Below, piece after piece: positions 15,569 to 39,288 of a stretch of DNA of 42,116 bases (the first letter of the stretch is position 1; each line of letters begins with the position of its first letter). Position numbers and translations under genes: made by a program. The stretch is from Escherichia phage sortsyn. Below the pieces are notes generated by a model, which saw only the letters and a program-made list of their open reading frames with translations, searched no databases and was not told where the DNA came from. The stretch lies in sequence record MN850623.1; one strand, 5' to 3'.

Positions 15569-16086
15569 TGCTGACGCTCCACGGCGTCGTAATTCCTTTC
15601 GCATACCTCCCCGGCGGTGATCGCCTTCTCCGCTATATCAGCATACCGTCCAGCGACTTCGCCAGTCCGTCGTAACAGGTCGGCGTACATTCTGGCGGTC
15701 TTTTCCCCTGACGCCCTTCCGAGGGCAGCGGTCTGATCAGCGGCTTCGCGTCGGGTGGCTTCCTTGCTGGCTCGTTCGAGCAACCGATCAAGGGCAGCGC
15801 CAGCAGTAGCAGCAGCGGCGCGAGCTTTTGCGGCTTGTTCATTCGCATATTTTACGGACTCCTCGCGGGCAATGGCCCGGCCTTGTTCAATGATACGGGC
15901 GGCGGCTTGTGCGTTCGCTTCCTGGGTGGATTCCTTCGCGATCCTGGCATTGTCGCGAGCGGTCCAGCCCCGGTCCGTCCAGGCCGAGCCAGCCCAGAAA
16001 GATCCCCCCAGCGCCAGCAGCACGACAACGACGAGCAGCAGCGATCGCCAGTGAGTCGAGAGGAACAACCGGAGGGCGGCGATCAT
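15565..16086 (-). CDS. Rz-type inner-membrane spanin
   Basis: N-terminal TM helix (SLLLVVVVLLALGG), Ala/Arg-rich coiled-coil periplasmic domain, ATGA overlap with endolysin stop. Confidence 0.8.
   Translation of the reverse strand: MIAALRLFLSTHWRSLLLVVVVLLALGGSFWAGSAWTDRGWTARDNARIAKESTQEANAQAAARIIEQGRAIAREESVKYANEQAAKARAAAATAGAALDRLLERASKEATRREAADQTAALGRASGEKTARMYADLLRRTGEVAGRYADIAEKAITAGEVCERNYDAVERQQ
15633..15848 (-). CDS. Rz1-type outer-membrane lipoprotein spanin, embedded out of frame in Rz
   Basis: Lipoprotein signal with lipobox LIGC, Pro-rich mature part, entirely inside the Rz gene in another frame. Confidence 0.75.
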   Translation of the reverse strand: MRMNKPQKLAPLLLLLALPLIGCSNEPARKPPDAKPLIRPLPSEGRQGKRPPECTPTCYDGLAKSLDGMLI

Positions 16087-17312: not shown

Positions 17313-17317
17313 AATAT

Positions 17318-19340: not shown

Positions 19341-19367
19341 GTTCGCCTCCGTTGTTGTTCGTCTTTA

Positions 19368-19395: not shown

Positions 19396-19480
19396 GAGTT
19401 TTCTTTACTGGTGCGGATTGACGGCGTTATGAATCACTGTTAAGTTATGAACACTTTATTAACGCAGCAGGGAAAAGACA

Positions 19481-22710: not shown

Positions 22711-22755
22711 CCACCACCGCCCGGTCGAGAGCCGGGCATCCTGGGAGGATCTACC

Positions 22756-25023: not shown

Positions 25024-25035
25024 ACTGGGGGGATC
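25024..25035 (+). repeat. 12-mer ACTGGGGGGATC, copy 1 of 3
   Basis: Exact 12-mer shared with 33090-33101 and 38095-38106. Confidence 0.5.
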
Positions 25036-25052
25036 GTAACGCCCCCTTTTTC
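25027..25052 (+). terminator. Rho-independent terminator
   Basis: Stem GGGGGG/GCCCCC then TTTTT; contains the ACTGGGGGGATC 12-mer. Confidence 0.65.
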
Positions 25053-25055
25053 GTC

Positions 25056-25238
25056 ATGCGTCCCCCGGTAACGCTGGCACAATTCGAAGCAACGAAGCGC
25101 GAGATCGCGGCGGGCTGGGTAGCAGTACCAGCCGATCCTGACACCTCGATCGACTGGGGCAACGTCGCGGCTCATGCCGTGGTGATCTTCCTGTGCGTCT
25201 GTGGTCTGCTGTGGCTGGCCTCGACCTTTATCAGATAA
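25056..25238 (+). CDS. Small membrane protein
   Basis: Start at ATG 25056 (the ORF-track extension runs through the terminator); C-terminal TM helix. Confidence 0.35.
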   Translation: MRPPVTLAQFEATKREIAAGWVAVPADPDTSIDWGNVAAHAVVIFLCVCGLLWLASTFIR

Positions 25239-25303
25239 CGCTTGCATGATGTACGCCCCGGCGATATGCTGGGGCCTTTCCACCCAACGAGAGAGATCGA
25301 ACA

Positions 25304-25774
25304 ATGTCAATCACCAGAACGAAAGAATGCCGCACCTGTGGCGCGACGGAGCCGAGAGGCTGGACCGAGGAGAAAGAGTTTATCTGTAGCGTGTGCCGTA
25401 ACAAGACCGTAGGCGAGGTCCTGGGTTATCGCACACTGACCGCACCGCGCAGCATGGCGAACAAGAGCCACGCCGCAGCAATGGCCCGCGCTATGGCGCA
25501 GGACAAACGCCCGGCGGCTCGCGGTACGCAGCAGGATCCGACGTCGGACCCGATGCACATCCTCAACCCGTTAAACCCGCTCTCCCCAGTGTCTCCGCTT
25601 AACCCGCTGAACGACTGGGACAGCAGCAGCCACCGCCAGTATGAAGCGAGCAGCGTCTCCAGCGTGTGCGACGACAGCAGCCGCCACACCAGCCACTCCT
25701 CCAGCCATGACTCCAGCAGCAGCTACGACAGCGGGAGCGACTCCTCCAGCTACTCGTCCGGGGGCTGTGACTGA
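25304..25774 (+). CDS. Zinc-ribbon protein with Ser-rich low-complexity C-terminus
   Basis: CRTCG...CSVCR at the N-terminus; NPLNPLSPVSPLNPLN repeats; Ser/Asp-rich tail. Confidence 0.5.
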   Translation: MSITRTKECRTCGATEPRGWTEEKEFICSVCRNKTVGEVLGYRTLTAPRSMANKSHAAAMARAMAQDKRPAARGTQQDPTSDPMHILNPLNPLSPVSPLNPLNDWDSSSHRQYEASSVSSVCDDSSRHTSHSSSHDSSSSYDSGSDSSSYSSGGCD

Positions 25775-26064
25775 TGGCGGTCGATAAGGGGCGCACCGTC
25801 GCCCGCAGCAAGGCGGAGGCAAGGCTGATAAAGGCTAAACTGTATCGCGGCCCGGAGTGCAAGATCCACGCGGGCAACTTCACCCGGTACACGTCAAACG
25901 GCGCTTGCATCATGTGCGCCAGCCTGACGGAGCCGAAGGGCAAGAGCCGGGGCTACATCGCCAAAAAGCGCGACGTCCAGGCGTTTAACCATCCCGTAAG
26001 CCCCTGGCCTATCACCGCCGAGAATATGCACCTTTGCCCGGATCTCTCGTTTAAGCGGACTTGA
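25774..26064 (+). CDS. Hypothetical Cys-containing basic protein
   Basis: TGATG overlap with upstream stop; RGPECKIHAGNF...GACIMCA. Confidence 0.45.
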   Translation: MAVDKGRTVARSKAEARLIKAKLYRGPECKIHAGNFTRYTSNGACIMCASLTEPKGKSRGYIAKKRDVQAFNHPVSPWPITAENMHLCPDLSFKRT

Positions 26065-26137
26065 TCACGCTTCCGTAACCGCCGATAATCCTCCGCGTAA
26101 CCCTGTGACACTCAGGCGATAACCGGAGGATTTTTTT

Positions 26138-26692
26138 GTGGCTAACGAGCAGAATTTAAAAAAGGGGAACAAGTTCTCCAAAGACAACCAGCCAGAGCGA
26201 CGCGGGAGGGCCAAGCAGAACCGGACCTTACTCCTCGAAGCCCTCCGAAAAGTACGCGTTAAGGAAGCGACCGGGCGCAGGATTGAGGATATCGATCCCG
26301 ACACTGGCGAGGTGAAGCTGAACAGCGAAACGGGCGAGCCGATCATGGTGGACGAATATGTGGAGGTCCCGCTCACGGAGGACATGTTCATCCAGCGGGC
26401 GATCCAGATGGCACTCGTAGACGGCGGCATGATGCGCGATATCATGAGCCGACTCATTCCCTACACGAAGCCCACCAGCCCGACCTATTGCTTTGAACTG
26501 ACCGGATCCACCCCGTCCGAGCGCATCACCGAGATCGAGGACCTGGTGGCGAATGGGGAGCTACCGTTCGACGCGGCGGAGGCAATGGTGAAGATGATCC
26601 GCCACGGCGCGGAAGTGTTCGAAATGTCCGAGATGGTCAAACGTCTGGACGCACTGGAGGCCCGACTGAATGGCGACAAAGAAGGCGAATAA
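26138..26692 (+). CDS. Terminase small subunit (putative)
   Basis: GTG start with GGAGG SD; N-terminus KKGNKFSKDNQPERRGRAKQNRT typical of small-terminase DNA-binding regions; sits just upstream of terL. Confidence 0.55.
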   Translation: MANEQNLKKGNKFSKDNQPERRGRAKQNRTLLLEALRKVRVKEATGRRIEDIDPDTGEVKLNSETGEPIMVDEYVEVPLTEDMFIQRAIQMALVDGGMMRDIMSRLIPYTKPTSPTYCFELTGSTPSERITEIEDLVANGELPFDAAEAMVKMIRHGAEVFEMSEMVKRLDALEARLNGDKEGE

Positions 26693-27104
26693 ACTCCCGC
26701 CGGACACTTACGGCAAGCTGGAGGCGCAGGGCCTGAAATGGTTCACGGCGTCCCCTTACCCTTATTTCATCGTGTGCTTTGACCCGCAGGACGAGGAGAT
26801 GGTGGCGAAGCTGGCGGAATGCTTCCCGGACTGGAACCGCGAGAAGGAGATCCAGCAGGGCGTCGCCATTGAGTACCACGCCGCCGACGTTAAGCTGGTG
26901 TTCGTGGGCGTCCGCCGGGGCCAATACTGGCGGACCACGATCGCACACGAGATCGTCCACGTTAAGAACTACATCGGCGACACGCTGGGGATCGAGTGGG
27001 ACCCGAACAACGACGAGCCGGAGGCGTACTTCGTGGGCTGGCTGTTTAACATGATGGAGCAGACCTTCGGGGATCTGGGCTATGGCAAAAAATCGAAAGG
27101 ATAA
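26670..27104 (+). CDS. HExxH motif protein (putative Zn-metallopeptidase-like) nested between terS and terL
   Basis: TIAHEIVHV HExxH motif; fills the 390-nt terS-terL interval with 23-nt overlaps on both sides; GGAGG SD. Confidence 0.5.
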   Translation: MATKKANKLPPDTYGKLEAQGLKWFTASPYPYFIVCFDPQDEEMVAKLAECFPDWNREKEIQQGVAIEYHAADVKLVFVGVRRGQYWRTTIAHEIVHVKNYIGDTLGIEWDPNNDEPEAYFVGWLFNMMEQTFGDLGYGKKSKG

Positions 27105-28704
27105 CCTCGATCGACTGGCTCGCCTGGAGGGGCGGGCCGCTTACGTCGCACGAGACGGCGGGCTGGTCTATGGCGTCTATGAGCCGGACGGGACCAGCGC
27201 CAAGCACTGCTACAACATGAAGAAGGTTAACGGAGAGTGGATCTACACCTCCGAGCCGCACGACATTACGATCGCGGAGTGTCTGACCCCGATCCTCCTC
27301 CGTCCGAAGCGCTTTATTATCCTGGTCGGGGGCCGTGGCTCCGGGAAGTCCCTCACCGTCGGCGGGATCATCGACGCGGACGCCCACGACGAGGCAGCGA
27401 GCGCGATGTGTCTCCGTGAGTACCAGGCATCGATCAAGGATTCAGTCCACCCGCTCCTCGTCAACCGGATCGAGGCTTACGGGCTGGACGGCTTCGAGGT
27501 ACTGGAGAAGGAGATCCGCCACTCCAACGGCGCGATCATCCGATTTAAGGGGATGGCCAGGGACCCGGCGGGCGTTAAGTCCGCGTTCGGCTTCCGTCGC
27601 TTCTGGGGCGAGGAGGCGCAGACCTTTTCCGCCGAGTCTCTCCGCCAGCTTACGCCGACCATGCGCGAAACGGGCGGCATGATGCTGTTCACCGCGAACC
27701 CCGGCTCCTCGGAGGATGCGTTCTCTCAGCGTTTTCTCATTCCATTCTGGGAGGATCTCCAGCGTGACGGCATCTACGAGGACGATCTCCACCTGATTAT
27801 CCGCGTGAACTGGGAAGATAATCCCTGGTTCCCCCCAGAGCTTCGATCGGAGATGGAGTTCGACCGCGTAACCCTCTCGAAAGCGCTGTTTGATCACGTA
27901 TGGGGCGGGATGTTTAACGACTCCGTACCGGATGCGATTATCCCGGCGGAATGGTTCGACGCGGCGATCGACGCCCACAAGAAACTCGGATTCAAGCCGT
28001 CCGGCATGAGGATCGGCGCACTCGACCCGGCGGACGTCGGGGCGGATAACAAGGCATACGGCGAGCGCTTCGGCTCCGTCGTCACCCATATGGAGGAATG
28101 GTTCGAAGGGGACGCGAACGACTCCGTAGACAAGGCGATCAACACGGCGAAGGACCACGGGATCGAGGCGTTCGTGTGGGACCGCGCCGGACTGGGCGCT
28201 GGCCTCCGTCGCCAGGTTACGGACTCATACGCCGGGACGAACGTCCTCGTAGACGGCTACAACGCCGGGGACGGCGTGAAGTTCCCGGACAACCCTGTGG
28301 AGCTGGATCACTGGCTCAACAACAAGGCGAAGGGCGACAACATTCAGAAGAATATCGACGCTTTCGCGAACCGTGGCTCCCAGGATATCTACCTGTTACG
28401 GAAGCGCTTCGAAAGGACTTACGAGGCCGTGGTGAAGGGCGTCTATCACAACCCGGACGACCTTATCAGCCTGGACAGCGAGGGGATCGGGGAGCATATG
28501 ACCAAACTCAGGGCCGAAGTGTGCCGCATCCCGCGCATTTACAACACGAACGGGAAGTTTGCCAGGATGCCAAAACCCCAAATGAGAACAAAACTCAAAA
28601 TGAAATCCCCAGGGATGGCGGACGTTCTTTGCATGTTAATGCAGCCACCGGAAGCGAAAAAAGAGGATGATTACAGCTATTATCAAGTGCCTAGCAACTC
28701 GTAA
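27082..28704 (+). CDS. Terminase large subunit
   Basis: Walker A VGGRGSGKS, ATPase plus nuclease domain layout, upstream of portal. Confidence 0.9.
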   Translation: MAKNRKDNLDRLARLEGRAAYVARDGGLVYGVYEPDGTSAKHCYNMKKVNGEWIYTSEPHDITIAECLTPILLRPKRFIILVGGRGSGKSLTVGGIIDADAHDEAASAMCLREYQASIKDSVHPLLVNRIEAYGLDGFEVLEKEIRHSNGAIIRFKGMARDPAGVKSAFGFRRFWGEEAQTFSAESLRQLTPTMRETGGMMLFTANPGSSEDAFSQRFLIPFWEDLQRDGIYEDDLHLIIRVNWEDNPWFPPELRSEMEFDRVTLSKALFDHVWGGMFNDSVPDAIIPAEWFDAAIDAHKKLGFKPSGMRIGALDPADVGADNKAYGERFGSVVTHMEEWFEGDANDSVDKAINTAKDHGIEAFVWDRAGLGAGLRRQVTDSYAGTNVLVDGYNAGDGVKFPDNPVELDHWLNNKAKGDNIQKNIDAFANRGSQDIYLLRKRFERTYEAVVKGVYHNPDDLISLDSEGIGEHMTKLRAEVCRIPRIYNTNGKFARMPKPQMRTKLKMKSPGMADVLCMLMQPPEAKKEDDYSYYQVPSNS

Positions 28705-28743
28705 TAGTTTGCGTGTATAATGCCGATGATATGACAAACGGAG

Positions 28744-29295
28744 ATGATTATGATCGGCATTGTGGACTATGACGGCGAGATGGTGGCTTGTAAGCATTGC
28801 GGAGAAGTTAAGGCAAGGACGCCGGATAACTTCGCTACTACGTCCGGCTATAAGGGGCGTAAATATGTTATGAAGGTATGCCGCAAATGCAAGAACAGCA
28901 GACACGCAGACAGGCAGCGGAAGAAGCGCGAGGCGGAGCCGGAGGTGGATCAGGCTATGCGTGAGGCAGTGAGGCGACACCGGGCAACCGGGCGAGGCTA
29001 TGCGGTATGCAAGATCAACACGTACCGAAGCCGTGACCGAAAGAAGGGCATGGAGTGCGATCTGGATCCAGACTGGTATCTGGAGAACATCACCGCCAAG
29101 CCCTGCTACTCATGCGGAGAGACGTCCGACACTATGGGCGCGGACCGCATAGACAACGACCTGGGACACATCAAGGGCAACGTTTTACCCTGCTGTGCTG
29201 ATTGCAATAGAATAAGGGCGCACCGTTTTACGATGGAAGATATGCGCGACCTAATCGGGCCAGCTATCGCAAAAGTGAAGGCAAGGCGGCTATAA
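28744..29295 (+). CDS. HNH endonuclease (free-standing, between terL and portal)
   Basis: GADRIDNDLGHIKGNVLPCCADCNRIRA HNH core plus Cys4 zinc ligands; AGA/AGG/ATA codon usage unlike neighbours. Confidence 0.8.
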   Translation: MIMIGIVDYDGEMVACKHCGEVKARTPDNFATTSGYKGRKYVMKVCRKCKNSRHADRQRKKREAEPEVDQAMREAVRRHRATGRGYAVCKINTYRSRDRKKGMECDLDPDWYLENITAKPCYSCGETSDTMGADRIDNDLGHIKGNVLPCCADCNRIRAHRFTMEDMRDLIGPAIAKVKARRL

Positions 29296-29325
29296 TCACG
29301 CCACTAACGACGAATACCGGAGATT

Positions 29326-31563
29326 ATGATGGCACGAGCAACGAAGAAGGCGCAGAACTGGCAGGAATGCGCACGTAATAAGTTAAGCGCCGCGATCGGG
29401 AGCGAGGAGTCCAGTCGTAAGAAGATGATCGAAACGGCCCGTTTCGTCCGCATTCCGGGCGCACAATGGGAAGGATCGACGAACTCCGGCTTTGCGATGG
29501 ATGATGAACGATTCCAGAAATACCCTCGATTCGAGCTTAACAAGGTCGGGCGCGAGGTGGATCGCATTATCACCGACTACCGCCTGAACCGCATCAATGT
29601 TACTTTCCGCCCGAAGGACACCCAGGCCTCCGAAGAACTGGCGGACAAGTTAAACGGCAAGTTCCGCGCAGACTTCCAGGAGTCGAACGGGCCGGAGTCC
29701 GTGGACAATACCTACGACGACGGCGTGACGGGCGGAATGGGCGCTTTTCGCATGGACACCGAACTGGAGGACGAGTTCGACCCGGACAACGAGGCCCGGC
29801 ATATTGTTTTCTATCCGATCTATGATCCGGCCTCGTGCCTGTTTATCGATCAGGACTCCAAAATGTACGATCGTTCGGATGCCATGTGGATGGCGGAGCT
29901 ATTCAGCATGACCCCAGACAAGTACGAGGAGAAATATCCCGACGCGCTCGCCCCGGAGGACCTGCTGGCGATGGACACCGGGAAGCAATTCGACTGGGCC
30001 ACGAAGGACGCGATCTATCTGGCGCGTTACTACGAGGTGAAGATCGAGGACACCACCGTGATCTCCTATAAGAACCCACTCACCGGGGACGTGGAGGTAT
30101 ACGACGAGGACGAGATCGAGCAGATCGAGGACGAGCTTAAGGCCGGAGGCTGGGAGCGCCAGAAGGACCGCAAGGTGAAACGCCGTAAGGTCTATTGCGG
30201 CCTAATGTCCGGCGGTGAATGGATCGAGGAGCCGAAGCTGATCCCGTTCGAATGGATCCCGATCTTCGTGTTCAACGCCCGCCGCTCGTTTATCGACAAC
30301 ATGGAGCGCGTAAGCGGTCACGCGACCCAGGCCCTCGACGCGCAACGTCTGGAAAACCTGATCGTGTCCATGATGGCGGACCAGGCCGCGCAGTCTGGCG
30401 GCGATAACATCCCGATCATGGATATCGACATGATTCCCGGCAAGCTGGCGGACGCCTGGGGGGAACGTAACACGAAGCGCCCGGCATACTTGCCCGCGAA
30501 ATCGCTCCGTAATGCCGCTGGTGAGGTCGTGCAGCAAGCCGGGCCACTGGGTTACACGCCATCGACTCCGCTCTCTCCAGCGCTGGCGGCGGTCCTCCAG
30601 TACACCGGGAGCACTATCCAGCAGATCGTCGGATCCTCCCAGGTCGAGGCCCTTCCGTCGAACCTTGCGACCGAAACCGTGGAGGCTATTTTCGCCCGCA
30701 TGGACGGCCAGGGCGCTCTCTACATGGACAACCTGGGGAAAACCCTCCGCCATTGCGGGCGTGTTTACCTCAGCGCGGCCCGCAAGGTCTACGGCTCGGA
30801 AAACTACGTCCGAATCAAGAACGAGGACGGGACCGACGATCTCGTGTTAATGACCGGGAAAGTGATCGACCGCGACACGGACGAGGCGATCGCGATTAAC
30901 GACCTCAAGCGCGGAAAATATGAGGTCGAGGCCGACGTGGGCGAGTCCAGCAGCACCAAACGGACTGCAACCGTCCGCAGCCTGACGACGCTCCTCCAGT
31001 CGATGGCACCAGGCGACCCGAACGCCGCCGTAGTCATGGGCCTGATCATCATGAACATGGACGGCGAAGGCTTGCAGGACTTCAAAGAGTACAGCCGCCG
31101 CCAGCTTCTCCTTAACGGCATTATCAAGCCGCAGACGGACGAAGAAAAAGCCCTTGTTCAACAGGCCCAGCAAGCGGCCCAGCAGCAGGAAAACCCGGAG
31201 ATGGTAGCCGCTCAGGGCGTAGCGCAGCAGGGACAGGCCGCAGTGATGGAGCAGGAGAACAAGCGCTTAGAATTGCAACTCAAGGCGCAGAGCACCGCGT
31301 CCGACGGCAATCTGAAACAGGCGCAGACGGTCAAGACGATGGCAGAGGCGGCAGCAATCCCGCAGGATCAGCTATTGAGCGCGATCGCCGTCCTCCAGAA
31401 GTACGTGAGCCAGCAGAACAGCGACGCCCACAAACAGGCGGATCTGTTCCTCAAGGCGCAGGGGCAAGGCCACAACCAGCAGGAGGATCGGAACGCTCGC
31501 GAGATGGCAGAACGCCAGGCGCAGCAGTCCGCCGATCGCCAGTTAGGACTCGCTGGCCTGTAA
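29326..31563 (+). CDS. Portal protein (P22 gp1-like)
   Basis: Colinear similarity to P22 portal as recalled (FYEV...EDT, KRRKVY, IPIFVF segments) and a Gln/Ala-rich C-terminal barrel region (LVQQAQQAAQQQENPEMVAAQGVAQQGQAAV). Confidence 0.92.
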   Translation: MMARATKKAQNWQECARNKLSAAIGSEESSRKKMIETARFVRIPGAQWEGSTNSGFAMDDERFQKYPRFELNKVGREVDRIITDYRLNRINVTFRPKDTQASEELADKLNGKFRADFQESNGPESVDNTYDDGVTGGMGAFRMDTELEDEFDPDNEARHIVFYPIYDPASCLFIDQDSKMYDRSDAMWMAELFSMTPDKYEEKYPDALAPEDLLAMDTGKQFDWATKDAIYLARYYEVKIEDTTVISYKNPLTGDVEVYDEDEIEQIEDELKAGGWERQKDRKVKRRKVYCGLMSGGEWIEEPKLIPFEWIPIFVFNARRSFIDNMERVSGHATQALDAQRLENLIVSMMADQAAQSGGDNIPIMDIDMIPGKLADAWGERNTKRPAYLPAKSLRNAAGEVVQQAGPLGYTPSTPLSPALAAVLQYTGSTIQQIVGSSQVEALPSNLATETVEAIFARMDGQGALYMDNLGKTLRHCGRVYLSAARKVYGSENYVRIKNEDGTDDLVLMTGKVIDRDTDEAIAINDLKRGKYEVEADVGESSSTKRTATVRSLTTLLQSMAPGDPNAAVVMGLIIMNMDGEGLQDFKEYSRRQLLLNGIIKPQTDEEKALVQQAQQAAQQQENPEMVAAQGVAQQGQAAVMEQENKRLELQLKAQSTASDGNLKQAQTVKTMAEAAAIPQDQLLSAIAVLQKYVSQQNSDAHKQADLFLKAQGQGHNQQEDRNAREMAERQAQQSADRQLGLAGL

Positions 31564-31594
31564 CTGGTCGGACCGCACGAAAAGCTAAAGACAA

Positions 31595-31620
31595 GCCCGG
31601 CAAGTCCGGGCTATTCTTTG
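31595..31620 (+). terminator. Terminator-like hairpin after portal
   Basis: Stem GCCCGG/CCGGGC then TATTCTTTG. Confidence 0.5.
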
Positions 31621-31658
31621 CCTCGACACATCACTAAACCATTACAAAGGAGTTTTGA

Positions 31659-31880
31659 ATGGCCCGATCACTGATAGCAGTCAAAGACGCCGCCGGGGAA
31701 AAGTATCTCCTCCCGGTCCGTAACATCGTGAGCGTGACGGAGTTCCCGGACAACGAGCGCCGCGTGGAGGTCAAAGTCCGCGAGCCGATCAACGGCCCAG
31801 ACGGGCGGATCTGTGGGTACGAGTTAAATCTGTATTACTCGCCAATGTCGATCGCACAATTCGAAGGGGCTTACGCATGA
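31659..31880 (+). CDS. Hypothetical protein
   Basis: 73-aa ORF. Confidence 0.45.
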   Translation: MARSLIAVKDAAGEKYLLPVRNIVSVTEFPDNERRVEVKVREPINGPDGRICGYELNLYYSPMSIAQFEGAYA

Positions 31881-32290
31881 ACCAGGAAAAAGTAATCCGC
31901 GCCGTTCTTCTGGCTCAGGCCGACGAGATGGGGATCCTCGACAAAGTGAAGGCGCACGAGGCCCGCCTGGCGGCTCGCTTCATCCAGCAGCCGACCGAGG
32001 AGGATCTGGCGGCGTATGGCCTGGCGCTGGCGCTGGTCGGCGCTCGCGCTTCGGAACTCATGACCAACGCGGAGCCGCAGGTGAAGGCGGGCGAGGTGGA
32101 ACCCGCTCCGATCGAGGTGGACCTGATGCCGACGGCGGAGCAGGTGGAGGCGGGCATTAAATCCCTGTGGGACGTCATACCGGGCGCGATGGATCAAGTC
32201 GTGCAGGACGACCCGGACGGCTCGGACGCGGTATTTTCTGACGCGGTGACGTTCGTCTGGCAAGGCATGATCGGCGCTCGCGCCAAATAG
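31877..32290 (+). CDS. Hypothetical protein
   Basis: 137-aa ORF; stop TAG is the first triplet of cassette copy F. Confidence 0.45.
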   Translation: MNQEKVIRAVLLAQADEMGILDKVKAHEARLAARFIQQPTEEDLAAYGLALALVGARASELMTNAEPQVKAGEVEPAPIEVDLMPTAEQVEAGIKSLWDVIPGAMDQVVQDDPDGSDAVFSDAVTFVWQGMIGARAK

Positions 32291-32330
32291 CACGAATTGC
32301 TAAAACAGCCTGATTATCAAATGTTATATT
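32288..32330 (+). promoter_or_regulatory. Promoter cassette copy F: palindrome TAGCACGAATTGCTA plus TGtTATATT extended -10
   Basis: Palindrome 32288-32302; hexamer 32325-32330. Confidence 0.55.
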
Positions 32331-32380
32331 GATTGTGTCGGCGGGGAATGGTCCCCGCCACTGACCAGAGAGACTACAAA

Positions 32381-32818
32381 ATGACTACTAAAACTTACAT
32401 CAAAAAACAATTCATTTGCCTGTGCGTCGCGGACGGTACACGCTCCAGCTTCTACAAACGCGGGGAGACTTACGTCTCCGACCACGACCTGGGCGACCTG
32501 TACAGCGTGGAGAAGCACACGAAGGACAACTCCGACCCGGCGCTGGTCCTGCTGGAGACTCGCGAGATCGAGATCGTCTACGAGGAGCCGACCGCCGAGC
32601 GCATCGCGGAACTTGCTCTCCCACTGCTGGAGAATGGCCTCCAGACCCTCCGCGCTTCGTTCTACATGGCGGAACAGAAGTTCCTCGCCGACATTGCCAG
32701 CATTCGCCAGCTTACCTACAAAGGCCCAATCGAAGGCGACTACGTGGCAGCAGCCGACAGCGCTCGCGACGTAACCCCTCGCAAGGACGACGACGTGGAG
32801 GACGCCGAGATCGTATGA
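32381..32818 (+). CDS. Hypothetical protein, first gene after promoter cassette copy F
   Basis: Start at ATG 32381 downstream of the cassette 5'UTR hairpin (ORF track 32333). Confidence 0.5.
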   Translation: MTTKTYIKKQFICLCVADGTRSSFYKRGETYVSDHDLGDLYSVEKHTKDNSDPALVLLETREIEIVYEEPTAERIAELALPLLENGLQTLRASFYMAEQKFLADIASIRQLTYKGPIEGDYVAAADSARDVTPRKDDDVEDAEIV

Positions 32819-33081
32819 AACATCACTATTTAGCCTTTCCGAGCGGGGGAGTCGCATCCCTCGCGAAGCTGGCCCAGGTGGAGACGGAACTCCACGACCT
32901 GGACGGCTTCCTGACCGGGCCAGAGGGGAACCGCTGGCGCATCGTAGCCAGTGAGAGGATCCACGGCTTCGAGAAGGACGGGGGAGACGTCGCGCCGTAC
33001 TACGTGATCCCCGCTTCGGTTCCACCGCATCACGAGGCGCTCTACCTATCCCAGCAGGTCGTAAGAGCCGCCACGAAATAA
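32815..33081 (+). CDS. Hypothetical protein
   Basis: ATGA overlap with upstream stop; 88 aa. Confidence 0.45.
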   Translation: MKHHYLAFPSGGVASLAKLAQVETELHDLDGFLTGPEGNRWRIVASERIHGFEKDGGDVAPYYVIPASVPPHHEALYLSQQVVRAATK

Positions 33082-33089
33082 CCCGCCAC

Positions 33090-33101
33090 ACTGGGGGGAT
33101 C
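33090..33101 (+). repeat. 12-mer ACTGGGGGGATC, copy 2 of 3
   Basis: Exact repeat, immediately after a stop codon. Confidence 0.5.
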
Positions 33102-33131
33102 GTTAATCGCGATCTCCCCTGTTTGCATTTT
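33093..33131 (+). terminator. Terminator-like hairpin
   Basis: Stem GGGGGGATCG/CGATCTCCCC (one G-U wobble) then U-rich tail; contains the ACTGGGGGGATC 12-mer. Confidence 0.5.
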
Positions 33132-33207
33132 CCCGCCGTCCTCGCTTAAACTTACACCCGCCACCGATGGGCGAAAACATCGCGTATGCAACAAACGAGG
33201 ATCTACA

Positions 33208-34203
33208 ATGAAATTCCGAAATATGTTTTTGAAATATTACGCAGAGCACGACGACGGATCTCAGGGAGGCGGCGACGGCGGCGCAGCGGCGTATGAGGCT
33301 CAACAAGGGCAGCAGGGCGAAAACGCCGACGACAATCCAGACACCGACCCGGACGAGAAGGATCCCGGCAACGCGGACACCGACCCGGACGAGCAGGACC
33401 TGGACGAAAACGGCGAGCCTAAGACGAAGGAAGGCGAGAACGGCGAGGACGACGATCAGGAGGAGGAGTTCCTGTTCGATGGTAAAGCCGTGACCGTTGA
33501 ACCGACCGACGAGGACGACCAGGAAGGCGACACCGAACTGGTGAAACGTCTCCGCGCTCAACTTCGCGAGCAGAAAAAACAGATTAAGGGATCCACCCAG
33601 AAGAAGGATCCGCAGGAAATCCCCGCCGATATGCCGCGTAAGCCGGAAATGGGCGACGAGGGGATCGACTGGGACCCGGAGAAGTACGCCGAAGCGCTGG
33701 ACAAGTGGACCGAGGATAAGGCAGCTTTCCAGCAGCACCAGGCGGCGCAGGAAGCGAAGCGCGAAGCGTTCGGGAAGAAATTCCAGGAAGGCCAGACGCG
33801 CTACCAGACGGAACGCGCAAAGGCGATCAAGAAGTACGCAGGATTTGAGAAGGCCGAAGCGGCGATCGCAGAACTGCCGGAGCCACTCCAGGCGGGCCTG
33901 ATGATCACCAGCCAGAACCCGACGGCGCTCGTGATGGCACTGGGACGCAATGCTGATTTGCGTAAACAGGTCGAGGACGCTTACAATAACGATCACATTG
34001 CGCTGGGCTATCTTATCCGCGATATTGAAAGCCGAGCGGGATCCGCACCGAAGGCGAAGCAGCAGCTTAACAAAACGCCGGACGTTAAGGGCCAGAATGG
34101 AGTCGCTAACGTGGGCCAACTCGAAGCCCTTCGCAAGAAGGCCGAAGAAACCGGGGATTATACGGCATACTTCGCGGCGAAAGAGAAGCGGGAAAAGAAG
34201 TAA
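33208..34203 (+). CDS. Scaffolding protein
   Basis: Acidic, helical, Lys/Glu-rich 331-aa protein between portal and coat. Confidence 0.7.
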   Translation: MKFRNMFLKYYAEHDDGSQGGGDGGAAAYEAQQGQQGENADDNPDTDPDEKDPGNADTDPDEQDLDENGEPKTKEGENGEDDDQEEEFLFDGKAVTVEPTDEDDQEGDTELVKRLRAQLREQKKQIKGSTQKKDPQEIPADMPRKPEMGDEGIDWDPEKYAEALDKWTEDKAAFQQHQAAQEAKREAFGKKFQEGQTRYQTERAKAIKKYAGFEKAEAAIAELPEPLQAGLMITSQNPTALVMALGRNADLRKQVEDAYNNDHIALGYLIRDIESRAGSAPKAKQQLNKTPDVKGQNGVANVGQLEALRKKAEETGDYTAYFAAKEKREKK

Positions 34204-34237
34204 ACTAAATTAATCACTCATCGGTGGAGATAGGATA

Positions 34238-35497
34238 ATGGCTAACCAGTTAGCGAAGGATCTCGAAATTGCTTTCGAGGAATATGTGGAGAGCTTCGAG
34301 GCGTCTTGCGTCGTGTCGAAGAACGCGGCGAAGTTCCGCCCCGGTGATCAGACGATGCAACGCGCCGGGGACGTGATCCACCGTCCGCAGCGTTACCACG
34401 CTGATATCATCGAAGGTCTGGATCTGACCGGACAAGCCGGGACCGATATCGTCCAGCGCCTCGTCCCTTCCGTGTTCAAAGAACCTCAGAACGTTCTCTT
34501 TAAGCTGGACGCTCGCGAAATGCGCGACCCAGAGCAGCGTAAAGAGATGGGCCGAGCAGCGGGCCAGCGCGTAGCCGCGAAGATCGACTCCGATCTGATC
34601 GCTACCGCAGCGCGTTACGCGACCCACGTCGCCACCACTGGCGACAACAGCACCGGAACGCTAGGCGGCGACCTGTGGGACGCAGCAGCGCAGATCGGCG
34701 CACAAATGACCGCGATCGGCATCCCGCAGGGTACGAATAAAAAAGCCTTCTGGAACTCGTTCTCAAACAAGTTCCTGGCGAAAGAACTCGGATCCCGCGC
34801 ATATGCTCAGGGCGCAACCCTGACCGCATACGAAAAGGCGCAGATCCCGGACGTGGCTCGCTTCATGTCCTTTGAGACGGATATTTCCGCACGTCTGGGC
34901 GCTGGCTCCGCAGCAGCGATCACCCTGGCAGCGGCTCCGGCTCACAAAGTCGAAGCGAAAGACGCGAACGATCTCCCGGTCGATAACCGCCAGGGCGTGA
35001 TCACCGTGTCCGCAGCCCACGGCCTGGTCGCTGGTGATGCCTTCACCATCGCGGGCGTGAACATGGTCCATATGATCAGCAAGGACACCACGGACACCCC
35101 TCAAGTGTTCCGCGTCCTGGGCGTGTCTGGTAACAACATCACGATCACCCCTCAGATCCTGCCGCCGGACAACGCCGATCTGCCGTCTCGCCCTTACGCG
35201 AACGTGGACGCGAACGCCGCCAACGGCGCGGAACTGACCGTTATCAACAACACGGCATCTAATGCTAACATCCTGTGGGCCGACGGCTCCGTGGAACTGA
35301 TGTTCGGTAATCTGGCGTTCCCTACTGGTCAAGGTCCGCAAGTAATGCGAGCCACCACCAAACAGGGCGCGACTCTGATCATGTCCTACGCGTTCGATCA
35401 CATCGCGGGCGTGACCACCTGCCGTTACACCACGCTTTACGGTTGTTCCGTCCTCGTGCCGGAATACGTGGGCCTGGTACTGCCTAACCAGCAGTAA
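34238..35497 (+). CDS. Major capsid (coat) protein, P22 gp5-like
   Basis: Position after scaffold, size 419 aa, local similarity to P22 coat as recalled (FTIAGVNMV, ILWADGSVELMFGNLAFPTGQ). Confidence 0.9.
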   Translation: MANQLAKDLEIAFEEYVESFEASCVVSKNAAKFRPGDQTMQRAGDVIHRPQRYHADIIEGLDLTGQAGTDIVQRLVPSVFKEPQNVLFKLDAREMRDPEQRKEMGRAAGQRVAAKIDSDLIATAARYATHVATTGDNSTGTLGGDLWDAAAQIGAQMTAIGIPQGTNKKAFWNSFSNKFLAKELGSRAYAQGATLTAYEKAQIPDVARFMSFETDISARLGAGSAAAITLAAAPAHKVEAKDANDLPVDNRQGVITVSAAHGLVAGDAFTIAGVNMVHMISKDTTDTPQVFRVLGVSGNNITITPQILPPDNADLPSRPYANVDANAANGAELTVINNTASNANILWADGSVELMFGNLAFPTGQGPQVMRATTKQGATLIMSYAFDHIAGVTTCRYTTLYGCSVLVPEYVGLVLPNQQ

Positions 35498-35513
35498 GAC
35501 GCGCAGCAATACA

Positions 35514-35543
35514 AAAGGGGAGCCATTGGCTCCTCTTTTTTTA
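35514..35543 (+). terminator. Rho-independent terminator after the coat gene
   Basis: Stem GGGGAGCC/GGCTCCTC then TTTTTTT. Confidence 0.8.
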
Positions 35544-35554
35544 TGGCATATACT
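35526..35554 (+). promoter_or_regulatory. Putative promoter overlapping the coat terminator
   Basis: -35 TTGGCT, 17-bp spacer, -10 TATACT. Confidence 0.3.
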
Positions 35555-35586
35555 AGCCGGGAAACATCACACAAAGAGGATTTACA

Positions 35587-36117
35587 ATGAACCAGCGTTC
35601 CTATTCAAAAACCGCCATCGCCGCAGTTTTAACCGTAATGCTTTACTCCCGCCCCGCTATTCTGGGACGCGAACGCATCACCGGGCTGGAAACCATGCGC
35701 CGCCCGCACACTGACGGCCCCTACGTCCGCGCCATCTTCCCGGAGCAAGAAGCCGCCGAGCGTCTGGAGTCTGGCTTCTGGGTGGATCATCCGAACAAAC
35801 TCCCGGCGCTGGATGCCGCGATCGCCGAGGCAGCGGAGAAGGAGGCCAAAAAGGACAAGCAGGAGGCCGACGACGAAGAAGCCGCCCGCCTGAAAGAGAA
35901 GCAGGACGCAGAGGCCCAAAATAAGGCCCCAGAATCGACCGCTACGGCCTCCGAGCAAAAAGACGCACCGAAGGCCGACGAAGTGAAGAACGAGCCAGAG
36001 AGCGGCGCAGAGGCTCAGGAATCCACCCAGGAAGCGAAGGCCGACGAATCCAAGCCGAAAGACGGCGAGAAGGTAGACGGCGCGAAAGTTCCGACCGACA
36101 AGAAGGCTAAGAAATAA
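35587..36117 (+). CDS. Hypothetical protein with Lys/Glu/Ala-rich C-terminal tail
   Basis: 176-aa ORF between coat and gp4-like gene, GAGGA SD. Confidence 0.5.
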   Translation: MNQRSYSKTAIAAVLTVMLYSRPAILGRERITGLETMRRPHTDGPYVRAIFPEQEAAERLESGFWVDHPNKLPALDAAIAEAAEKEAKKDKQEADDEEAARLKEKQDAEAQNKAPESTATASEQKDAPKADEVKNEPESGAEAQESTQEAKADESKPKDGEKVDGAKVPTDKKAKK

Positions 36118-36119
36118 TT

Positions 36120-36575
36120 ATGGCGACTTTGCAGAAGATCCAGATCGTTAACCTGGCGTTACGCCGTGGCGGGCTGGCGTCGTCTGCTGTTCTCATGATG
36201 CCAGATCCCCAGCAGTTAGCCGACGCGCTGGAGGATCTGGAGGGCTTAATGGCTACGGTGATTCAGGACGGCGTGGCCTTACCCTACATCTTCACGACCA
36301 ACGCCGACGGCGTACCGGACGGGAACGAGGACTCCGGGCTGGACCTGTGGACCAAAGAGGGGATCGCCCTCAAGCTGGCCCAGCGGATCCTCCTGGATAT
36401 GCAGCGCGATTTAACGCCTGAAATGAACGCAGTTTTAAAGGAGCAATGGGACATTATTAAGATCCAGTTCTACACGGTCCCAAGCCTGAAACAGCGTAAC
36501 GATATGCCTACGGGGGCGGGTAATCGTCCGTTCTTCCCGGAGGACCGTTTCTACTATGACGGGAGCGACAAATGA
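36120..36575 (+). CDS. Head-to-tail adaptor / tail accessory factor (P22 gp4-like)
   Basis: LEDLEGLMATVIQDG and RNDMPTGAGNRPF parallel P22 gp4 DDLEAMMAEWYQDG and SRMPTGSGNSF as recalled. Confidence 0.85.
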   Translation: MATLQKIQIVNLALRRGGLASSAVLMMPDPQQLADALEDLEGLMATVIQDGVALPYIFTTNADGVPDGNEDSGLDLWTKEGIALKLAQRILLDMQRDLTPEMNAVLKEQWDIIKIQFYTVPSLKQRNDMPTGAGNRPFFPEDRFYYDGSDK

Positions 36576-36652
36576 AACCGACCAAAGGCAAAAAGAAGCC
36601 GCAGGGCAGCAAGAAGCCGAAGAAACCAGCTAAGGCTAAAGGGGGCTACTGA
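36572..36652 (+). CDS. Possible 26-aa lysine-rich micro-ORF (MKPTKGKKKPQGSKKPKKPAKAKGGY)
   Basis: Start overlaps the gp4-like stop (ATGA) and its stop overlaps the gp10-like start (TGATG). Confidence 0.3.
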   Translation: MKPTKGKKKPQGSKKPKKPAKAKGGY

Positions 36653-38091
36653 TGCGCAACCCAGAACGCGGGCAGGAGATCACGATCCCGCTGTTATATG
36701 GCGATGGTCGCCGATCGACGACGCTCGACTGGTCAACCCGGCTACCGGAGAACATGCTGGCGGTCGCCCGCACCATTAAGGGCGGTAACGGCTATATGCG
36801 CATGATGCCGGGGATCGTGAAGGACAAGGACGTGGCGGGCGTCTCTCGCGGCGCAGACTGGAACACGGTCAAAAATGCGACTTACCGCGTGATGGGTGAT
36901 CAGCTGTACCTCTCCGGGGAGTCCGTGGCGACCATCTCCGGCGTGGACCGTACTCCTATGGCACATAGCCGGAACCGCGTCGCCATCGTGTCCCAGAACT
37001 CCATGATCATGATCGGCTACGACGGGAGCCGGAACAGCTTCTCCAACTGGACCGGGGAAGATGATCCGACGTATGACTGGGGCGACATTAACGACGTGTG
37101 CCACCTCCGCCAGCGCTTTATCTTCTCCACGAAGAACTCGGACACCTTCTGGATCTCCGACCTGCTGGACGAGACGAAGCCAGACAAGACCGCCCCGGCG
37201 TACCGCGCCGAAACCATGCCGGACGGCATCGTGGCGATCAGGGCGTGGCGTGATTATGTCGTTTGTTTTGGGACCGCCTCGATCGAGTTCTTCGGCCTGA
37301 CCGGGGACGATCAGAACGTCTACGCCAGCCAGCCGTCCTACACCGTCGAAGCCGGGACGATCGGGCGTGAAAGTGTCTGCGAGTATATGGAGACTTTCGC
37401 CTTTCTTACGTCGCCATTCTCCGGCGATTTGACGATCGCCATGATGAACCCCGGCGGCGGTACGTGGAGCGAGATCGCCAGCGCGGAGATCAAGAAGATT
37501 CTGGCGGACTATGACGTGGCAGACCTCGCCGACGTCCGTCTGGAGTCGCTCAGTTTTGAGACTCACAAACTTCTGATCGTCCACTTGCCGGACAAAACGC
37601 TGGTTTACGATCACCCAGTAAGCCAGGCGCAGGGCGTCCCGGTCTGGTCGTACATTAAGACGGGCATCAACGGGATCGGACCTTACCGCGCCGTGGACTT
37701 CGTGAACGAGGGCCGCGTGATCACCTGTGGCGACAAGCTGGATCCGTATCTGGGGAAAATGGATAACACCACGTCGGCCCAGTATGGCGAGGACCAGGAG
37801 ATCGTCCTGTATACGCCGCTATTGTGGGCCGAGAATGCGATCCTTGCAGACTTCCGCATGGATGCCAGCACCGGGGGCGACTCCGTAGCGAGCCGGATCT
37901 GGCTCTCCGCGACCGAGGACGGGATCGTGTACGGGCAGGAGAAAAGCATCGCCTACAATACCCCGTATCAGTGGCTACAGAACGTTATCTTACGCGTAGT
38001 AGGCCGAGTCCGTTCCGCTATCGGCTTTAAAATCCGCACCGTAGGCGCAACCCCGGCGACTCTCTCGCGGGCGCGTGTCCGTGTGACCTAA
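36652..38091 (+). CDS. Tail hub protein (P22 gp10-like)
   Basis: GVSRG...NA.YRV, AWRDYVVCFGTASIEFFGLTG, ITCGDK, WLSATEDGIVYG, IGFKIR segments colinear with P22 gp10 as recalled. Confidence 0.9.
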   Translation: MRNPERGQEITIPLLYGDGRRSTTLDWSTRLPENMLAVARTIKGGNGYMRMMPGIVKDKDVAGVSRGADWNTVKNATYRVMGDQLYLSGESVATISGVDRTPMAHSRNRVAIVSQNSMIMIGYDGSRNSFSNWTGEDDPTYDWGDINDVCHLRQRFIFSTKNSDTFWISDLLDETKPDKTAPAYRAETMPDGIVAIRAWRDYVVCFGTASIEFFGLTGDDQNVYASQPSYTVEAGTIGRESVCEYMETFAFLTSPFSGDLTIAMMNPGGGTWSEIASAEIKKILADYDVADLADVRLESLSFETHKLLIVHLPDKTLVYDHPVSQAQGVPVWSYIKTGINGIGPYRAVDFVNEGRVITCGDKLDPYLGKMDNTTSAQYGEDQEIVLYTPLLWAENAILADFRMDASTGGDSVASRIWLSATEDGIVYGQEKSIAYNTPYQWLQNVILRVVGRVRSAIGFKIRTVGATPATLSRARVRVT

Positions 38092-38094
38092 TCC

Positions 38095-38106
38095 ACTGGG
38101 GGGATC
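38095..38106 (+). repeat. 12-mer ACTGGGGGGATC, copy 3 of 3, directly abutting the tail-needle ATG
   Basis: Exact repeat, here in the ribosome-binding position. Confidence 0.5.
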
Positions 38107-38886: not shown

Positions 38887-39288
38887 ATGGAACAAAAAGA
38901 GATGATCGAACTCGTGCCAGACTCCGGCGTGGACCTCCTCCACGCCTGGGGCTTGCCGGAGTGGCCTCGCAATGCCGAGGCTAAATATTTTCTGTGGGAT
39001 CGTTGTTGCGTGTTTGCCATCATGGCGAACGATGAAGGCGGGATCGATGGTCATATGGCGATGGATCCCCCCAGACGCAGACGGTCACGCGAGGCTTGTC
39101 TGGCTTTTCTGTACCACTGGGGCCACTATGCGATCCGCGTTCCGGTCCTTATGAGTCACAAACACGCCCGGAACGTGGTCCGAAAAGTCGGATTTGTTGA
39201 AAGCCCTCCCCAGCTTGTACAATTGGTGGACGGCAGAGAGGCGGAAATTATTTTCTTGAGGAGAGGACCAAATGGGCGGAGCAATTAG
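38887..39288 (+). CDS. gp14-like virion assembly/ejection-associated protein (assignment by position)
   Basis: 133-aa ORF between tail needle and gp7-like gene, where gene 14 sits in P22-like phages. Confidence 0.45.
   Translation: MEQKEMIELVPDSGVDLLHAWGLPEWPRNAEAKYFLWDRCCVFAIMANDEGGIDGHMAMDPPRRRRSREACLAFLYHWGHYAIRVPVLMSHKHARNVVRKVGFVESPPQLVQLVDGREAEIIFLRRGPNGRSN

Follow-up and report, generated by a model that had tools for sequence, protein, structure and literature searches.

A strict polar DNA word in evenly spaced convergent pairs along the genome of Escherichia phage sortsyn: a possible Chi-like signal

What purpose might be served by a short DNA word that recurs just behind the stop codons of a virulent phage? 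The question is posed by the genome of Escherichia phage sortsyn (MN850623.1), assigned to the genus Murrayvirus (PMC7552041), where the 12-mer ACTGGGGGGATC is found on the plus strand at positions 25024, 33090 and 38095. A preliminary description suggested that these copies might be a shared terminator or ribosome-binding site (RBS) building block, or a protein or RNA recognition site. The window, i.e., the whole stretch of 42,116 bp that was analysed (59% GC), represents essentially the entire genome of a virulent podovirus. In this article we describe the three copies as the intergenic members of a genome-wide array of a strict, asymmetric 9-mer, outline its arrangement, its conservation and its counterpart in T1-like phages, and discuss which machinery may read it. 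The original finding of three copies and a terminator/RBS module under-describes a real and strongly supported, yet mechanistically open feature.

The three copies indeed lie closely 3' of stop codons, 9 nt behind the TGA at 25012-25014, 8 nt behind the TAA at 33079-33081 and 3 nt behind the TAA at 38089-38091, and the third adjoins the ATG at 38107. Two further exact copies at 10889 (+) and 8605 (-) are both intragenic, and hence the 12-mer occurs five times rather than three. If two mismatches are allowed, 31 matches are found versus 4.1 expected, all of which share CTGGG-N-GGATC, and the leading A of the 12-mer is not conserved. The suspected excess over chance is thus much larger than claimed, but the 12-mer is not its unit. 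It is merely a fragment of the real motif, which consists of CTGGGNGGA, followed by T (or less frequently A) and then by C (or, in decreasing order, T and G). This definition stems from a substitution table summed over seven genomes. Positions 1-9 (CTGGGNGGA) are nearly invariant, with 122 cognate sites against 0-4 for each single substitution, any base being allowed at position 6. At position 10, T (122) or A (18) is found, and at position 11 C (122), T (24) or G (13).

The window harbours 32 copies of the core CTGGGNGGA, 20 on the plus and 12 on the minus strand, and 21 copies of the full motif CTGGGNGGATC. Fewer than one full copy is expected. For the core, the expectation is 1.7 by dinucleotide shuffles, 4-6 by Markov models of order 3-5, and 10.8 (maximum 18) by a synonymous-codon shuffle, which preserves every protein and leaves the intergenic copies in place. 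Approximately 26 of the 32 copies are located within genes, where they occupy all three frames in sense and antisense orientation. The encoded peptides are unrelated (PGGI, RSTQ, LGGS, GIRPG, DWGDR, DPPR), and this, together with the use of all frames and both strands, rules out a protein-coding motif. About 40% of the copies are antisense to the local gene and conserved equally well. Since the word is used in all frames, on both strands, in genes as well as in spacers, selection acts at the DNA level. Five or six core sites are intergenic, as are 5 of the 21 full (11 nt) copies, although non-coding DNA makes up only about 6.5% of the genome. This surplus probably arises because placement in a spacer entails no coding cost and allows double use.

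Such double use is evident at a few sites, and from these the notion of a reusable terminator or ribosome-binding block at the RNA level derives. Two of the three noted copies had been described as 5' arms of terminator hairpins. For 33091 this is correct: an 11-bp hairpin (-22.1 kcal/mol, z = -3.95), in which the copy provides the 5' arm, is followed by a T-rich tail, and the 3' arm at 33111-33122, 20 nt away, is a degenerate inverted copy of the motif. The hairpin at 25025 (G6/C5 plus U5), however, is weak (z = -0.54), and at 38096 no hairpin is formed. An intrinsic terminator, defined as a hairpin plus U-run in sense orientation 3' of a gene, accordingly exists at 1 of the 32 copies; apart from the weak case at 25025, the copies are intragenic or antisense. 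The copy at 38096 lies between the stop codon ending at 38091 and the ATG at 38107, where its G-run can act as a Shine-Dalgarno sequence, and the copy at 22741 (GGAGGA) doubles as a Shine-Dalgarno sequence just 5' of the ATG at 22756; none of the other 30 copies is located beside a start codon. The sense motif can pair with the anti-Shine-Dalgarno sequence at the 16S 3' end except at one position. Yet, antisense copies are equally conserved and the T1-type counterpart described below shows no such match, and therefore the pairing represents an incidental co-option at 22741 and 38096. Overall, a terminator or RBS function accounts for at most 4 of the 32 copies (33091, 25025, 22741 and 38096). 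The intragenic copies in all frames and orientations, along with the twelve on the opposite strand, rule out an RNA-level role for the class as a whole; moreover, the T1-type motif has neither a G-run nor any likeness to a Shine-Dalgarno sequence, and pairing and even spacing would go unexplained. In spite of the intergenic surplus, this explanation is very improbable and essentially excluded. The alternative suggestion of a protein or RNA recognition site was right in direction, as the word is under strong sequence-specific selection.

A motif that is not conserved in relatives would have spoken against the preliminary description, but the opposite was found: the motif is present in every relative examined. 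Core copies number 31-37 in Enterobacteria phage IME_EC2 (97.9% identical to the window over the 15 kb queried), KMB41, ST231, Lumpael, Sortsne, IME279 and Kc237, 28 in Kc166B and, in two more distant phages, 18 (Skarpretter) and 16 (C130_2). Many sites are orthologous despite diverged flanks, while the N position drifts, and in distant genomes the motif columns are 0.86 identical versus 0.75 for the flanks. The retention of the window sites falls with distance (32/32, 29/31, 22/29, 18/26, 16/22, then a handful), whereas the total per genome stays near 30, and 136 non-orthologous sites were counted across ten genomes. Falling retention at steady totals implies that selection maintains the number and spacing of the sites rather than particular positions.

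The largest motif-free gap in the window extends from 498 to 5464, in particular from 2153 to 4405, and includes the tailspike gene, the similarity of which is mosaic (67% to C130_2, 46% to Sortsne). The same stretch harbours an open reading frame (ORF) of 94 amino acids at 4459-4743 (-) with a Thoeris anti-defence Tad2-like domain (PF11195, E=2.3e-22). No tblastn match to this ORF was obtained in the 11 related genomes compared, and hence it looks recently acquired. The mosaic tailspike and the Tad2-like ORF without homologues suggest that the stretch 498-5464 as a whole is recently acquired DNA. The gap is consistent with a recent horizontal exchange that left too little time to acquire sites.

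The sites are not scattered at random, but form convergent pairs. In their order along the window, the strands of the 32 sites read +-+-++-++-+-++-++-++++-+-+-+-+-+, such that each minus site directly follows a plus site. The twelve gaps from a plus to the next minus site (convergent, with the 3' ends facing each other) range from 79 to 970 bp with a median of about 320 bp, and all twelve are shorter than 1 kb. In contrast, the twelve gaps from a minus to the next plus site have a median of approximately 2,000 bp, and only one is shorter than 1 kb. Neither random positions nor shuffled strands reproduce this pattern (p<2e-4). Permutation analysis of the nine genomes with at least 28 sites, including the window, yielded p<=6e-4 for IME_EC2, KMB41, ST231, Lumpael, Sortsne, IME279, Kc237 and Kc166B. 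Pairing is also observed in Skarpretter (p=0.006 and 0.0006) and is weak in C130_2. Allowing one mismatch in the core adds only three sites to the window, all on the minus strand, two of which partner otherwise unpaired plus sites; the remaining unpaired sites are all on the plus strand. With each pair counted as a single unit, even spacing becomes apparent: a unit occurs about every 2 kb, with a coefficient of variation of the gaps of 0.31-0.51 versus approximately 1 for random placement (p<=0.0024 in all ten genomes tested). Consecutive plus sites in the late region, e.g., are 2284, 2722, 2709, 2635, 2687, 2318 and 3045 bp apart.

In addition to the word itself, its surroundings are polar. 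The nine bases of the 5' flank, read on the motif strand, avoid A (10.9% versus 17.4% at non-motif CTGGG sites, p=2.6e-7) at an unchanged T content, while the 3' flank is featureless. The A-poor flank is thus located outside each pair. No second half-site or conserved element was found inside the pairs, the motif being all that the interiors have in common, and base composition and GATC density are the same inside and outside. The members of a pair were gained independently and at different times. Hairpin formation between the arms of a pair was considered and rejected, as the N bases are not complementary and the loops would comprise 46-1000 nt; only the copy at 33091 is part of a real hairpin. 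Likewise, the pairs are not terminal inverted repeats of mobile elements, since their interiors are conserved coding sequence (of the primase, terminase, portal and further genes) with nothing in common.

At this point, it is scarcely credible that the word has no function and is a by-product of codon usage, oligonucleotide composition or biased repair. CTG-rich and G-rich words are common at 59% GC, and the synonymous-codon shuffle still produces about 11 copies, partly because the intergenic ones are kept. Yet, four null models speak against such an origin, the 32 copies observed exceed every shuffle, all frames and both strands are used, and the motif columns are more conserved than their flanks. 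Furthermore, composition does not yield pairing, even spacing or flank polarity, and the recently exchanged tailspike region lacks the motif. A compositional artefact is therefore essentially excluded.

The geometry itself brings to mind paired sites for a protein that binds to or translocates on double-stranded DNA. Such a protein might loop or bridge the DNA, resemble the colliding motors of Type III or Type ISP restriction enzymes, or introduce site-specific nicks on opposite strands, as in T5-like phages with their nicked genomes. Type III enzymes require head-to-head site geometry, and the targets of Type III and Type ISP enzymes are likewise asymmetric and function only in inversely oriented pairs at variable distance, a likeness that concerns geometry only. 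The strict head-to-head arrangement at variable spacing (46-1000 bp), the very sharp sequence definition, which is typical of specific DNA-binding proteins, and the independent gain of partners beside existing sites all agree with this explanation. However, no Mod/Res-like, Type ISP or nickase genes were detected among the window proteins, about 8 sites per genome are unpaired, and the interiors lack both a conserved element and a distinct composition. The sole extra signal lies outside the pair and on one strand. Moreover, phages normally avoid rather than accumulate such sites; Type III and Type ISP targets are avoided or strand-biased in phages, whereas the word described here is enriched. 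Taken together, we regard paired sites of this kind as rather unlikely.

A counterpart of the motif exists in another group of phages, to which the window is linked by its gene content. The head and tail genes of the window are annotated as P22-like, while the replication and recombination genes are T1-type and comprise a Zn-ribbon primase, a RadD-like SF2 helicase, a VRR-NUC nuclease, an exonuclease VIII-like nuclease, Erf, SSB, RusA, a phage Dam and a second methyltransferase. Between the RadD-like helicase and its counterparts in T1-like siphoviruses, the identity amounts to 45-50%. When 9-mers containing no more than one N were searched for without bias, CTGGGNGGA emerged as the top word in the sortsyn clade and CTGANTGGT as the top word in T1 (30 copies) and Tls (28 copies), versus 1.4 expected. 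CTGANTGGT is also found in JakobBernoulli (Hanrivervirus, 21 copies) and Penguinator (Webervirus, 15 copies), and no comparable 9-mer was retrieved by this search from phiJLA23, Akira, Ymer or the lambdoid P22-like phage Sf101. A second search that scored convergent pairing gave the same answer. The two words share a CTG...GG skeleton, and the internal free position of CTGANTGGT is mostly a pyrimidine. Its 5' flank is even poorer in A (9.6% versus 27.8%, p=1.6e-16). Pairing is clear in Tls, where 7 of 8 convergent but 0 of 8 divergent neighbours are closer than 1 kb, moderate in T1, weak in JakobBernoulli and absent in Penguinator. In view of this patchy pairing, the parallel is strong for the type of motif and the flank, and only suggestive for the architecture.

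The literature searched mentions neither 9-mer for Murrayvirus, Sortsnevirus, Kosakonia phages or TLS/T1, and full-text sequence searches returned incidental primers only. A scan of viral contigs for short-spaced pairs retrieved known relatives only, and the corresponding scan of bacterial genomes gave 31 matches, which is near chance apart from a repeat in Actinomyces dentalis DSM 19115. This repeat of about 108 bp is present in some 20 copies, the ends of which happen to match CTGGGNGGATC...GATCCNCCCAG, and it probably is a miniature inverted-repeat element unrelated to the phage motif.

The only repeated element reported for T1-like genomes is a 21-nt intergenic repeat, aaATAGCACnnnTTGnTAAAA, in the 2024 re-annotation of TLS, which does not mention the 9-mers CTGGGNGGA or CTGANTGGT (PMC11447400). 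Six copies of ATAGCAC(nnn)TTGCTAAAA in the window, at 11323 (+), 13633 (+), 18302 (-), 22340 (+), 23735 (+) and 32287 (+), match this repeat; they run along local transcription and adjoin conserved sequence that resembles TTATCAAATGTTGTTATA. C130_2, Skarpretter and Penguinator contain repeats of the related words AGCACTTTTTG, and in Tls two CTGANTGGT copies directly adjoin 21-nt repeats (1512 and 49756). The 21-nt-type repeat probably represents a common promoter or regulator site of T1-type early and middle genes. It is an element separate from the 9-mer, as it is intergenic only, always directed along transcription, AT-rich and promoter-associated.

Which proteins are candidates for reading the word? 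Host RecBCD acting at Chi was rejected, because the motif differs from GCTGGTGG and genuine Chi is not enriched: the window contains 8 copies at a Markov expectation of 7.0. The occurrence of two different words in phages of one E. coli K-12 host, along with Chi at expectation, speaks for a reader encoded by the phage and against unmodified host RecBCD. Only exonuclease VIII, Erf, the primase, the RadD-like helicase, VRR-NUC and Dam (plus SSB with Tls) are common to the sortsyn clade and T1. In the window, the recombination module is a leftward cluster that encodes SSB (5496-6047), Erf (6050-6769), exonuclease VIII/DUF3799 (6772-7812), VRR-NUC (7852-8319) and the RadD-like SF2 helicase (8320-10362), candidate readers that follow the motif type in their pattern of similarity. 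Adjacent, on the plus strand, are the genes for the Zn-ribbon primase (10425-11243) and the phage Dam methyltransferase (11397-12038; PF05869/TIGR01712). Phage Kc166B, with the sortsyn-type word in 28 paired copies, is particularly informative. Its exonuclease, helicase, VRR-NUC and Dam group with the sortsyn type, but its primase is only 31% identical to the sortsyn type, i.e., as distant as the T1 primase, and 34% identical to the T1 type, and thus is not congruent with the motif type. Accordingly, the distribution of the motif follows the recombination genes and Dam, not the replisome genes. No gene shows a perfect pattern of presence and absence relative to the motif. Dam and an ORF of 92 amino acids at 13914-14192 (+) come closest, and both are also found in Ymer. 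The latter ORF (PHROG 2817) has homologues in T1, Tls and Ymer and may encode a small DNA-binding factor. An ORF of comparable size, which may be this homologue, is located immediately 3' of dam in T1 and Tls.

We infer that the word is read by an enzyme that moves along, or starts on, one strand, and tentatively favour the view that CTGGGNGGA(TC) may be a polar signal similar to Chi, addressed to the machinery with which the phage itself carries out recombination and resection. The reader would be a phage-encoded protein of the T1-type recombination/replication module that reads one strand, and the word would tell a nuclease or helicase travelling on the DNA to stop or to change its activity. 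The exonuclease VIII homologue, or the adjacent RadD-like helicase together with the VRR-NUC nuclease, might fulfil this role. The outcome would be a limited processing of phage DNA ends, with Erf and SSB loaded onto the A-poor stretch beside the site. Poly(dA) is bound poorly by single-strand-binding and annealing proteins, and an A-poor stretch would make a good loading zone. Pairs at intervals of about 2 kb would place a properly oriented site near, and on both sides of, any break or packaged end. A tracker moving 5' to 3' from outside would meet the near arm of a pair in sense orientation, and a two-sided resection would leave a duplex island between the arms.

This reading is ranked first owing to the Chi-like form of the word, its lineage dialects and its agreement with exonuclease VIII, the RadD-like helicase and VRR-NUC. 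Like Chi, the motif is a strict, G-rich and asymmetric 8-9-mer that is over-represented, used in all frames, polar, variable between lineages and associated with recombination genes. Even the skeletons are alike, with CTG-G-TGG in Chi, CTG-GG-NGG in sortsyn and CTG-AN-TGG in the T1 type. Chi sequences differ between bacterial taxa. A taxon-specific Chi has been described, for instance, in Pseudomonas (PMC5959072). The phage motif differs from Chi by its presumed phage-encoded reader and by a density of approximately 1 per 1.3 kb versus 1 per about 4.5 kb for Chi in E. coli. While an over-represented, strict and asymmetric oligomer in all frames is just what was observed, a genome-wide, co-oriented strand bias was not: the 20 plus and 12 minus sites form local, evenly spaced convergent pairs instead of a replication-oriented bias.

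Several points weigh against a Chi-like function. Bacterial Chi is characterized by a genome-wide strand bias and does not form local pairs, and the convergent order is uneconomical for a RecBCD-like reader that moves 3' to 5'; it better suits 5' to 3' trackers or outward "start" events. To our knowledge, no phage-encoded nuclease recognizes Chi, and we know of no RecE-type exonuclease or RadD-type helicase that is regulated by sequence. Lambda exonuclease, on the other hand, pauses in a sequence-specific manner. The phages phiJLA23, Akira and Ymer carry the same recombination genes and homologous primases without such a motif, which implies that the recombination module works without it. Finally, the T1-type motif is linked to the sortsyn type by analogy, and its pairing, as noted above, is weak or absent in two of the phages.

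The principal alternative holds that the word is a priming signal. In this scenario, the motif strand would be the template, on which a primase of the DnaG or T7 type starts opposite the T of CTG; the 3' part GGNGGATC would be the recognition flank that is not copied, and the A-poor 5' flank would yield a U-poor, stable primer of about 11 nt. The spacing of approximately 2 kb would set the length of Okazaki fragments, and an inward pair would launch two outward strands and hence constitute a bidirectional start unit. Both motif families begin with CTG, although this is a coincidence of sequence only. DnaG of gamma-proteobacteria uses CTG as its initiation trinucleotide and, by starting at the middle T, produces pppAG primers (PMC2978363). 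An extended 3' flank has a precedent in T7, the primase of which requires about 10 nt of 3' flank for site choice and uses approximately 26 strong sites in 14 clusters 1-6 kb apart in a 40-kb genome (PMC12839067). In addition, a Zn-ribbon primase is among the phage proteins, the sites are spaced at distances comparable to Okazaki fragments, and outward synthesis would be expected to place the A-poor flank outside the pair, where it is indeed located. The pairing of rU with dA is weak, in agreement with a flank that avoids A but not T, and a tract of about 9 nt plus AG corresponds to the length of a DnaG primer.

Known primase sites, namely d(CTG) of DnaG and 5'-(G/T)2GTC-3' of T7 with its 10-nt 3' flank, thus resemble the phage motif in the CTG start, the polarity, the use of both strands and the spacing. 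They comprise only 3-5 positions, however, and are neither conspicuously over-represented nor paired, whereas the phage motif has nine strict positions and its one-mismatch variants occur at background frequency. The Kc166B comparison weakens the case for the primase as reader, as the diverged primase of this phage coexists with an unchanged motif. Moreover, the replicative AAA_25 helicase has been exchanged and is non-orthologous within the sortsyn clade, and the motif-less phages phiJLA23, Akira and Ymer possess homologous primases. The zinc ribbon of the primase is conserved, but its catalytic domain is putative, with no match to PDB sequences and no obvious TOPRIM signature in the alignment. 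A priming signal therefore is a possibility that we consider doubtful.

A further explanation couples the word to methylation: Dam or a Dam-like enzyme would have a special target in the single GA(T/Y) that is invariant in each motif, and the methylation state of this target would mark phage DNA. Dam is the sole common protein that is absent from the motif-less phages phiJLA23 and Akira, and its similarity pattern follows the motif type. The genomes with the motif are all rich in GATC, with 524 sites in the window versus about 154 expected from base composition and 407-524 in all relatives, and positions 8-11 of the sortsyn-type motif are GATC more often than GAAC, GATT or GATG. GATC is scarce (about 160 expected) in the Dam-less phages phiJLA23 (48) and Akira (37), which avoid it, and also in Sf101 (68), which has a Dam-like methylase. 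Yet, Ymer and Sf101 have Dam-like enzymes but not the motif, few independent lineages were sampled, and neither pairing nor even spacing nor an A-poor flank is explained by a methylation target. The preliminary description had likewise pointed to GGATC as a methylation target; this idea is weak, as 11 of the 32 core sites and the equivalent T1-like motif lack GATC. A methylation-coupled role hence appears improbable. Apart from the explanations considered here, some other mechanism retains a small but appreciable chance.

Over-represented polar oligomers that are read by DNA-handling machines are a class known from bacteria. KOPS (GGGNAGGG) is such a short, polar and G-rich word with an internal N, but its polarity is directed genome-wide toward dif and not organized in local pairs. 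The uptake sequences DUS and USS are also over-represented short polar words, and DUS often form inverted pairs that double as terminators, similar to the copy at 33091. DUS pairs, however, are as close as the arms of a hairpin and occur in naturally competent bacteria, and the sequences of both KOPS and DUS differ from the phage motif. No earlier description was found of a member of this class that is carried by phages, comes in dialects of its own, forms strictly convergent pairs at even intervals of about 2 kb and has a polar flank.

Along the window, the genes are organized in a rightward block from 19481 to the window end and on to 4405, a leftward block at 4459-10362, a rightward block at 10425-15538 and a leftward block at 15565-19340. 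The window opens inside the gene for a long DNA-transfer (ejection) protein (1-2125 and 41260-42116), the other part of which apparently lies at the right end. Such an opening within a gene is expected if a genome is circularly permuted and packaged by the headful. The first convergent pair, 102-112 (+, CTGGGGGGATC) and 498-508 (-, CTGGGTGGATC), is located within this gene, and an unpaired site CTGGGGGGATC at 41141-41151 (+) is the last of the array. The pair at 5464-5474 (+) and 5673-5683 (-, CTGGGGGGAAT) has an intergenic plus arm that is kept in most relatives. It is followed by an unpaired site CTGGGCGGAAT at 7591-7601 (+), by the pair at 8151-8161 (+) and 8605-8615 (-), which lies across the VRR-NUC/helicase gene junction and includes the exact minus-strand copy of the 12-mer, and by an unpaired site CTGGGCGGATC at 9960-9970 (+).

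The primase gene harbours the other intragenic copy of the 12-mer at 10890-10900 (+), paired at a distance of 101 bp with 10991-11001 (-); Sortsne, IME279 and Kc237 retain the two arms. Further downstream are the pair at 12257-12267 (+) and 12970-12980 (-), a one-mismatch site CTGGGTAGATC at 13393-13403 (-) and an unpaired site CTGGGCGGATC at 13511-13521 (+), the N position of which drifts between C, A and G among relatives. For the second "DNA methyltransferase" in this region (12830-13603, +; PHROG 757, E=3e-64), neither Pfam, NCBIfam and PADLOC nor the PDB sequences gave a match; it is found throughout the clade and in Tls, but not in T1. Within the spanin gene, a pair with arms 79 bp apart (15922..16011) is retained with both arms out to Skarpretter and C130_2. 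An intergenic, unpaired site CTGGGTGGATG follows at 17938-17948 (+), and the pair at 18968-18978 (+) and 19656-19666 (-) spans the divergent gene junction near 19340-19481.

In the rightward block, an unpaired site CTGGGTGGAAT at 21089-21099 (+) precedes two plus sites with one-mismatch partners on the minus strand, i.e., CTGGGAGGATC at 22741-22751 (partner 23398-23408) and the first noted copy at 25025-25035 (partner 26505-26515). Pairs are located within the large terminase gene (27747..27838, 81 bp apart) and the portal gene (30456..30642). Just 3' of the portal gene, a perfect 7-bp palindromic hairpin AGCCCGG...CCGGGCT at 31594-31612 has a T-rich tail on either strand and may terminate transcription in both directions. 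The second noted copy at 33091-33101 (+) has a full partner at 33590-33600 (-), the following pair is located at 35778-35788 (+) and 36020-36030 (-), and the third noted copy at 38096-38106 (+) is partnered by 39064-39074 (-).

Few cases are known in which a genome is "written" for its own machines that handle DNA. Chi, KOPS and uptake sequences belong to these cases, and the well-understood ones are all bacterial. The lytic phage sortsyn carries about 30 strict sites in 42 kb, arranged with a regularity (convergent pairs every 2 kb or so) that is seen in no described system. A sister version, not reported in the genome papers searched, seems to be present in the classical phage T1 and its relatives. 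The motif can be used as a marker for this phage group, and it is a constraint when these therapeutic-candidate phages are recoded or engineered. Since orientation, spacing and flank can all be altered synonymously, the hypothesis is directly testable. The reader, if found, would reveal either a phage-encoded, sequence-regulated system of recombination and resection, or an unusually specific priming system. A broader proposal, which we put forward as speculative, is that virulent enterobacterial phages mark their own DNA with evenly spaced, inward pairs of a private polar 9-mer and thus possess a "viral Chi". If so, the word would be read by a phage-encoded helicase or nuclease of the recombination module, with the T1-like phages using a different dialect, and the group would comprise Murrayvirus, Sortsnevirus and their relatives as well as the classical T1-like phages. 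Phage DNA would then be spared and recombined, while unmarked DNA of the host or of competitors would be processed differently, and the paired word would amount to a viral code for self and non-self.

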